DNA of 64,000 nt from Eledone cirrhosa. Taxonomy: Eukaryota. A program made the position numbers and the translations under genes. The stretch covers positions 52,328,001-52,392,000 of the forward strand of contig OZ024740.1 in assembly GCA_964016885.1 (NCBI GenBank), in the 5' to 3' direction. Below are positions 18,593-19,146 of this stretch, one piece after another. The notes under the pieces were generated by a model, which saw nothing but the letters and a program-made list of their open reading frames with translations, was not told the DNA's origin and made no database searches. Position 1 is the first letter of the stretch. The number at the start of each line of letters is the position of its first letter.

Positions 18593-19146
18593 CATGTTTT
18601 TACTGCTTCCTCTTTCTCTGTATCTTTACCCTCTCTAGCAGTCACTCTCTCTGTTAGCCTCTTCCTCACCCTCCACTCACTAATTCTCTGTTACTACCTC
18701 TTCTCTTCCTCCTTCTTCCCGTTTGACCTGTGCGTAATTCTTTTCTTTCGCACCCTTCGTCTGGCAGCTGGCTTTTTTTCTCTCTCTCGTCTACGATTTC
18801 ACAGAACTTACTTTCACCGAAATCACAGACTAGATCCCTTCTTCCCCCTGTTAGACCTGTACGGAATTCCTTCCTTGCTTACATTCCAACCAGGTTTGAT
18901 GGTCTTATTCTCTCTCGTTCACGATTTCACCGAATTTAAATTCATAGAAATTTGGGACTTGACTCCTTCTTCCTCACTTTTCGTTGCTTCACCATTTTTG
19001 TTTGTTTACACTCGCGTCCCCTTTATTTACGTGTCCCAACGACTTTTTTTAGCCGTTGCTCGCACCAACCGGAGGTATCTGGTCTTTAAAGCGATGAAAT
19101 ACCAATGATGGTTGGAAGATCACTGATGAAGGACTAACTTTATTCA
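18593..19146 (+). mobile_element. Non-coding element with structured 3' end, homologous to 58270-58711
   Basis: Pyrimidine-rich body; terminal ~110 nt align with 58580-58695; flanked by GA/TA microsatellites. Confidence 0.55.

Follow-up and report, generated by a model that had tools for sequence, protein, structure and literature searches.

What kind of RNA is specified at positions 19037-19140 and 58584-58695, where one pattern of short helices recurs in different letters? Both places lie in the window (the whole stretch of 64,000 nucleotides analysed here), which is microsatellite-rich DNA of a 3.0-Gb genome, an animal one to judge by its repeats. The earlier note on this DNA saw in them the ends of two divergent non-coding elements, carrying a hairpin, a kink-turn (K-turn) and a CUGAUGA word, and took the motif for a cis-acting RNA module, perhaps bound by an L7Ae-family protein, and not for a complete hammerhead.

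The helices of the motif

The two stretches do share the motif, and its helices covary. The hairpin reads CAACGAC../CCGUUG in the 19.0-kb copy and CAAUAACU/AGUUAUUG in the 58.6-kb copy; the second helix is CCAACC/GGUUGG in the former and CUAGGC/GCCUAG in the latter. In both, the pattern GA-GGUAU...AUAC-3 nt-GA is followed by CUGAUGA-N-GGA, with (TA)n about 15 nt downstream. The structure begins slightly upstream of the position first proposed, at 19033, where GUCC pairs with GGAC 19131-19134. Two further helices were missing from the initial description, namely stem I (UGGUCU 19080-85/AGAUCA 19117-22) and Pc (UCGC 19060-63/GCGA 19091-94), and their presence makes the fold a double pseudoknot. 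The features of the window that belong to it are the following.

18596 to 19146, plus strand: copy of the non-coding family A unit, lacking part of its 5' side (about 550 bp present of about 635), between (GA)n/(TA)n flanks
19033 to 19036, plus strand: helix Pa 5' strand, GUCC, with its partner GGAC at 19131-19134
19037 to 19058, plus strand: hairpin Pb, a junction arm (pairing in 95.5% of cells; 4 of its 8 pairs changed on both sides)
19060 to 19063, plus strand: helix Pc 5' strand, UCGC, forming a pseudoknot with GCGA 19091-19094, a presumed substitute for stem II (140-144 of 151 copies paired per position)
19065 to 19073, plus strand: 5' strand of the K-turn NC helix, CCAACC, then G3n, G2n and A1n (134-144 of 151 copies paired, 5 of 6 pairs with two-sided change)
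19074 to 19079, plus strand: block S, with the stem III 5' strand GGUAU (U16.1 is 19078) and N17, which is C19079
19080 to 19085, plus strand: stem I 5' strand, UGGUCU (3 of 6 pairs with two-sided change), then a 4-5 nt linker to Pc
19091 to 19103, plus strand: block G, with the Pc 3' strand GCGA, U11.1, G12-A13-A14-A15.1 (19096-19099) and the stem III 3' strand
19104 to 19115, plus strand: K-turn 3-nt bulge AAU, then G1b, A2b, U3b and the NC helix 3' strand GGUUGG
19117 to 19134, plus strand: block C, with the stem I 3' strand AGAUCA, CUGAUGA (19123-19129), A10.1 (19130, paired with U19095) and the Pa 3' strand GGAC
58312 to 58715, plus strand: copy of the family B unit, with a ribozyme-like fold at 58580-58682 (N17 58627, GAAA 58644, CUGAUGA 58671)
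62659 to 63657, minus strand: partial tandem of family C that has a period of 753 bp and includes an inverted 5' piece
Within the latter, minus strand: two S-G-C folds of family C without K-turn (N17 62748 and 63501; CUGAUGA 62707-62701 and 63460-63454)

The 58.6-kb copy departs from most family B copies by two mismatches (-1b is A, and 10.1 is C).

A hammerhead core in the order S-G-C

The statement that the motif is not a complete hammerhead is wrong: 19033-19134 has every nucleotide of the core as well as stems I and III, in the non-circular order S-G-C. Hammerhead positions (N17, U16.1, A15.1 and so on) are given in the usual numbering. The sequence GGUAU-C pairs with GAAA-UACC as a hammerhead stem III does, with the U16.1-A15.1 pair and N17 in their places, and the UGGUCU that follows N17 pairs with the AGAUCA that directly precedes CUGAUGA, as stem I. 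This pairing in 19074-19129 fixes the 5'-to-3' order as site, GAAA, CUGAUGA, the CUGAnGA core being CUGAUGA 19123-19129. The cut is predicted, on this assignment, between 19079 and 19080.

A pairing descriptor (stem I of at least 5, stem III of at least 5, order S-G-C) finds the copies at 19.0 kb, 62.7 kb (minus) and 63.5 kb (minus) in the window and nothing in 40 shuffles. A looser descriptor finds seven places in 264 kb, including all four copies of the window (the 58.6-kb copy being added), and a mean of 0.0 matches over 10 shuffles of the 264 kb.

For a larger sample, 151 in-register copies were retained from 216 matches to a pattern that does not include pairing; the other 65, which have no in-register 5' part, were dropped. 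Since the words CUGAnGA and GAAA were the anchors of the search, their conservation in this set is partly by construction. U16.1 and N17 lie outside the search pattern. The U16.1-A15.1 pair is present in 148 of the 151 copies, and N17 is A in 100, C in 48, U in 1 and G in 2, so that the H17 rule (A, C or U) holds in 149, with a switch between A and C across subfamilies. Stem I, which adjoins N17 and C3, covaries, and stem III, which adjoins A15.1/U16.1, shows G-C/A-U and U-A/C-G changes; each position is paired in 143-149 copies for stem I, 141-149 for stem III, 140-144 for Pc and 134-144 for Pk.

The departure from the usual architecture concerns stem II. There is no continuous stem II between the strand that follows CUGAnGA and the strand that precedes GAAA, only the 10.1-11.1 pair, which forms in 137 of the 151 copies (A-U 71, G-U 37, U-A 29) and fails in 14. 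Beyond this pair, the strand after CUGAUGA goes to its Pa partner far 5', while the strand before GAAA goes to its Pc partner in a second 5' segment, with hairpin Pb between the 5' strands of Pa and Pc, which gives a four-way junction in place of stem II. The Pa pairs, in the best register of each copy, are GUCC/GGAC in 105, AUCC/GGAU in 25 and UUCC/GGAA in 5 of the 151 copies, and Pc occurs as UCGC/GCGA, UUGC/GCAA or ACGC/GCGU. The linker from stem I to Pc reads UUAAU, UUAAA or CUAAC. The fold is very probably derived from a hammerhead.

Covariation and controls

The double pseudoknot was modelled with 35 pairs in 25 copies that were hand-picked for diversity: 94.2% of 874 cells are paired, 18 pairs have changed on both sides, and slid controls of the same model are 28-45% paired. 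None of 500 shuffles reaches four of the five measures, and the fifth, the number of pair types, is reached by 289 of the 500; because the copies are related, these shuffle and copy counts are descriptive and are not probabilities. Further copies, in the set of 151, largely preserve the stems and the G.A pairs.

When the same 3' core words were looked for in viral, metagenome and prokaryote collections, 3 of the 302 matches listed passed the stem I/III test, and none of these three resembles the S-G-C K-turn fold; in the genome itself 118 of 206 passed, in a set that includes 5'-truncated copies chosen deliberately. In the nested minimum free energy structures from RNAfold, which cannot model pseudoknots, family A has the K-turn arm and stem III, and B and C are folded otherwise.

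Comparison with Rfam, which had been suggested along with the motif, returns no family. There is no match in the window at the gathering score. At E<=5, a search of five loci gives no hammerhead, SECIS or snoRNA model on the motif; its 64 sub-threshold hits are nearly all repeat-driven miRNA matches, and the sole overlap with a motif is a weak antisense RUF1 hit (E 3.9).

The K-turn and the lineage without it

The K-turn signature that was initially described is genuine. A 3-nt bulge, then G.A and A.G, stand between two helices and continue stem III; the bulge length is fixed, G1b.A1n is found in 149 of the 151 copies and A2b.G2n in 138. On the non-bulged strand, A1n is present in 149 copies, and 2n is G in 138, U in 9 and A in 4. 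The GA of the bulge strand was in the search pattern, and just 530 matches in the genome are without G1b. The sequence of the bulge itself varies (AAU in 67, UAU in 55, others in the remaining copies).

In standard K-turns, C:G at -1b:-1n favours folding without protein, and U:U at 3b:3n together with G:C at 4b:4n impairs it (PMC5689011). Here -1b:-1n is mostly C:G, and 32 of 147 copies combine it with U:U at 3b:3n and G:C at 4b:4n, as in box C/D-like K-turns. The sequence rules hence give mixed predictions of folding and binding according to the subfamily. Since the 3b:3n and 4b:4n pairs of these 32 copies are of the kind that impairs folding, the idea of an L7Ae/Snu13 protein may apply to some subfamilies, for which binding is plausible. 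The motif resembles standard K-turns (Kt-7, box C/D; PMC5689011) in its 3-nt bulge, in G1b.A1n and A2b.G2n and in the usual -1b:-1n pair. It differs in lying within the arm of a ribozyme, so that its C helix is the hammerhead stem III, and in having no guide or snoRNA features. The nine copies with A.U at 2b.2n are like the Kt-23 variant with U at 2n, which still folds (PMC2790904).

The K-turn is not universal. What had been taken for a weaker version of the motif at 62700-62775 (minus) is indeed a related copy, and it is not a K-turn copy: it belongs to a sister lineage, family C, with a tandem twin at 63.5 kb and relatives at five other loci of the genome (L229, L231 and L242-L244). Lineage C has retained the core, Pb, Pc and the two stems, I and III, in other letters (CUGUA/UACAG and GAUGU/ACAUC for stems I and III); 91.7% of cells are paired in 12 copies, in which covariation within the lineage is not above that of shuffles. 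By eye, a helix with an asymmetric loop of about 5 nt on its 5' strand stands in place of the K-turn. Position 10.1 appears paired with the 5' strand (UCCU/AGGA versus UCCA/UGGA), so that the 10.1-11.1 pair appears to give way to an exchange of strands at this step. As lineage C swaps the K-turn for an asymmetric loop, it may be that a bend, and not a protein site, is what the fold needs.

The repeat element and its possible mobilisation

The two places are not two elements, as was first thought, and belong instead to high-copy repeat families. A first look at the genome gave 3,049 candidates for family A, 2,227 for B and 1,782 for C, the best 40 of the 3,049 having 97-98% identity. A pattern for the 3' half has 13,783 matches in the genome (control 0), and its variants have 2,972 when L3 is not U (control 7) and the 530 already mentioned without G1b (control 12); the resulting figure of about 17,000 copies is rough, since the patterns differ slightly and can overlap. 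The G1b-less matches that were listed are mostly single changes in known subfamilies, with one satellite-like array and lineage C. The array (C1:81.65-81.70 Mb) has units of about 513 bp, with 18 cores in 10 kb and A for G1b, and would represent the local amplification of a copy that had lost this K-turn pair. Elsewhere (C1:43.918-43.924 Mb, L198-L206), nine units form a head-to-tail multimer with a period of about 720-800 bp; this subfamily has the bulge CAG/UGG and stem I UGGCCC/GGGUCA.

The fold stands at the 3' end of pyrimidine-rich units, one per unit, with periods of 470-806 bp overall and of 616-698 bp in family A, the boundaries being set by BLAST at 25 loci. No coding frame was seen by eye in the units. 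At the loci, copies form partial tandems, have inverted 5' pieces and are truncated to various extents on the 5' side, and tails and (TA)n flanks or targets are present. An ungapped test of 66 family A copies, in which some ends may be indel artefacts, places the 3' end 17 nt beyond the core in 31 of them and at 47 or 57 nt in 17. Of the cis-acting RNA module proposed at first, the covarying structured RNA stands; the ribozyme of a non-autonomous retroelement is a better reading than a generic protein-binding role. Family A is also present in contigs that carry the label of a second organism, where the ribozyme part shows 2 differences over 119 nt.

No autonomous element with the S-G-C fold, a shared 3' end or a shared pLTR was found in the loci inspected. 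The coding Penelope-like elements (PLEs) that were inspected in the genome have type I-like hammerheads, or none that was detected, and never the S-G-C K-turn fold. Three candidate partners were rejected: a PLE-like ORF that lies beside a copy (L140/L150) has a different terminal repeat, one of its own, across (AT)61; a very young RT/GIY-YIG-like family near L141 has, by eye, a type I-like core at its end; and a 5.2-kb periodicity at C1:111.94 Mb comes from the tandem duplication of a segment that has no ORF. A very young PLE-like family is spread over many contigs (L151-L180): the 115 matches scored have 98-100% amino-acid identity, frames stay open for up to about 900 aa, copies form tandem pairs and inverted pairs and, by eye, a CCGAAGA variant core lies near the 3' end.

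The window contains other elements as well. On the minus strand at 13847-16954 and on the plus strand at 936-3809 and 49895-53178 lie what we take to be, respectively, Helitron-like helicase pieces, an L1/Tx1-like LINE and R2/REL-like RT pieces; RVT_1 at 49895-50713 is the sole label confirmed by Pfam among these. At 32520-35231 (plus) an intact PLE-like ORF of 777 codons shows, by eye, RT-like motifs together with a GIY-YIG-like motif at its C-terminus, and is accompanied by a pLTR (repeat at about 36070) that has a type I-like hammerhead with CUGAUGA at 32614 and 36166. A broken copy related to this ORF lies at 43323-45490 (minus), and Pfam returned no match for the PLE-like ORFs of the window. 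The name Naiad was considered for 32.9-35.2 kb and rejected, since the GIY-YIG-like motif is C-terminal here and N-terminal in Naiads (PMC8557442). A canonical type I hammerhead, with stems I and III of 8 bp each, is found at 41021-41159 (plus) in a short partial-tandem, retrozyme-like repeat. At 58850-59390, each arm of an inverted repeat has CUGAUGA...GAAA with stem I AGCU/AGCU, possibly a minimal type I hammerhead.

Relation to known systems

The closest relatives are the type-SGC hammerheads (HRIMA-1 and variants; Eckert et al. 2023, PMC10085705), which cleave in vitro and which, as far as the accessible parts of that paper go, are reported only from metatranscriptomes and with stem II intact. 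The motif shares with them the block order, the complete core, at least two pseudoknots and a short linker between the stem I 5' strand and block G on its stem II side (4-5 nt here, typically 3 nt in type SGC). It differs in several respects: a four-way junction and a K-turn arm take the place of the intact stem II and of the helix 'I' that joins the other sides of stems I and II; stem III bears the K-turn; and the motif resides in a retroelement of the chromosomes, present in some 17,000 copies. The motif thus resembles type SGC and is not filed as HRIMA-1, because it has no continuous stem II. The words 'Kink' and 'k-turn' do not occur in the main text and supplement wording of PMC10085705, figures aside, and the portions of the cited papers available to us hold no case of a non-continuous helix as hammerhead stem II. 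In the literature, mostly open-access, we found no description of an S-G-C hammerhead with a K-turn beyond Eckert 2023. What appears to be new is a chromosomal, high-copy, S-G-C hammerhead-like fold with a split stem II and a K-turn.

The non-LTR retrozymes of animals are defined by a type I (C-G-S) hammerhead (PMC7229834; 10.64898/2026.07.22.740005), and their RNA occurs in linear and circular forms of unit length. Like them (Cervera and de la Pena 2020; Li et al. 2026), the units described here are non-coding, a few hundred bp long, arranged as monomers to multimers and provided with one hammerhead each, and the mobilisation by PLEs that is proposed for them is a further likeness. The present motif is S-G-C and not type I, which makes it invisible to retrozyme descriptors. 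The pLTRs of PLEs (PMC8557442, PMC11167929) have the same partial tandems, inverted 5'-truncated copies, tail of 30-40 bp, (TA)n targets and hammerhead near the 3' end; the units here differ in having no ORF.

Does the motif cleave?

From its core and pairings, we consider that the motif probably self-cleaves as its function. The stronger argument for cutting, although an indirect one, is the purifying selection that the catalytic positions show in subfamilies otherwise divergent, more than the footprint left by truncation. The 5' starts were counted in 226 copies, 62 of which come from loci selected for their (TA)n junction. In 65 of the 226, the start lies no more than 44 nt upstream of G12: at a distance of 0-13 nt in 39, of 14-16 nt in none, of 17-20 nt in 14 and of 21-44 nt in 12. 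Without the copies chosen for truncation, 164 are left, with 14 starts at 0-20 nt and 5 at 21-44 nt, which is suggestive at most. Starts are most frequent at the UAA linker, 7-9 nt ahead of GAAA, and cluster again at 17-20 nt; TA-like words coincide with both places. There is no sharp peak at the predicted cut among the 65 starts, and about 5 of the 200 copies listed break exactly there, by eye. The excess of starts on the 3' side of the predicted cut, as a cleaved linear template would give, points weakly to cleavage; TA microhomology fits both clusters, and stalling of a reverse transcriptase at the pseudoknot would look similar.

In the mechanism that we regard as the best explanation, and as a likely one, a non-coding repeat, presumably mobilised by Penelope, would use a self-cleaving S-G-C hammerhead to cut its multimeric transcript once per unit. 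In the S-G-C order, the far end of stem III would have to meet those of stems I and II. K-turns bend by about 50 degrees (PMC5689011); that of the motif could fold the stem III arm back, the NC helix joining stem I on its 3' side and Pc on its 5' side through one linker nucleotide each, and the 4-5 nt linker tying stem I to Pc, so as to form a closed cage that would do the job of the usual contact between loops I and II. In lineage C, it appears to be the asymmetric loop, on the other strand, that provides the bend, and the binding of Snu13/15.5K would be an optional aid to folding. Tandem copies would be transcribed, and cleavage after N17 would release RNAs of unit length, which may circularise; multimeric or circular templates could be copied into (TA)n by a PLE reverse transcriptase/GIY-YIG enzyme acting in trans, starting about 17 or 47-57 nt past the core.

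The absence of a clear cut-site peak in the 5' starts would also suit a hammerhead descendant that is now mainly a structural RNP handle, a Snu13/15.5K K-turn or a dock for the PLE reverse transcriptase, and that cuts slowly or only when bound by protein. The 3' ends, 17 and 47-57 nt past the core, would place initiation by the PLE enzyme just downstream of such a handle, 32 of 147 copies have box C/D-like K-turns, and insertion in vitro does not require the PAc hammerhead, which is assisted by protein (PMC11167929). That hammerhead cleavage proved dispensable for in vitro insertion in a Poseidon PLE (PMC11167929) also speaks against the preferred reading. We nevertheless find this reading unlikely, since G17 is avoided and U16.1-A15.1 and GAAA are invariant across divergent subfamilies, as catalysis requires, and lineage C retains the core without the K-turn.

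It may also be asked whether the core is assembled across neighbouring units or from two RNAs (for example, S and C of one and G of the next), which would make it an ordinary, circularly permuted hammerhead. The units do occur in tandem, and dimeric hammerheads of PLEs and salamander retrozymes have been reported (PMC7229834; reportedly also Lunse 2017), but blocks S and G of one unit are held together by the K-turn helix, which covaries, Pa and Pc close the fold locally with fixed spacings, and stem III is a stable helix of 5 bp, unlike the weak palindromic stem of dimeric forms, all of which makes this arrangement improbable. Finally, that the motif is a K-turn hairpin with no relation to hammerheads, its CUGAUGA being a box C/D-like word, is very improbable: CUGA and AUGAUG do resemble boxes D and C in family B, but coincidence leaves the covariation of stem I, GAAA, the H17 rule and lineage C unexplained, and Rfam has no snoRNA or SECIS match on the motif.

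We therefore retain the self-cleaving hammerhead as the preferred reading. We put forward more tentatively, as a serious possibility, its fullest form: an active chromosomal hammerhead of undescribed architecture, with order S-G-C, a four-way-junction stem II that includes a fourth strand, and a closing K-turn through which, in the box C/D-like subfamilies, the host's Snu13/15.5K would control cleavage; it would represent a large class of animal retrozymes that escapes the standard descriptors.

Implications

Some retroelements have been reported without canonical hammerheads and with isolated halves of the core, 'HHR_half_core' (PMC8557442); they deserve re-examination. The many natural subfamilies, one of them with an alternative bend, form a ready-made compensatory series for studies of structure and kinetics. 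Each block of the hammerhead has been assumed to be uninterrupted (PMC10085705), an assumption that would be overturned if the motif cleaves. Nature would then offer a hammerhead that has a K-turn built in and may be gated by a protein, and non-circular permutations would move from anonymous metatranscriptome RNAs to an animal genome, in roughly 17,000 copies.
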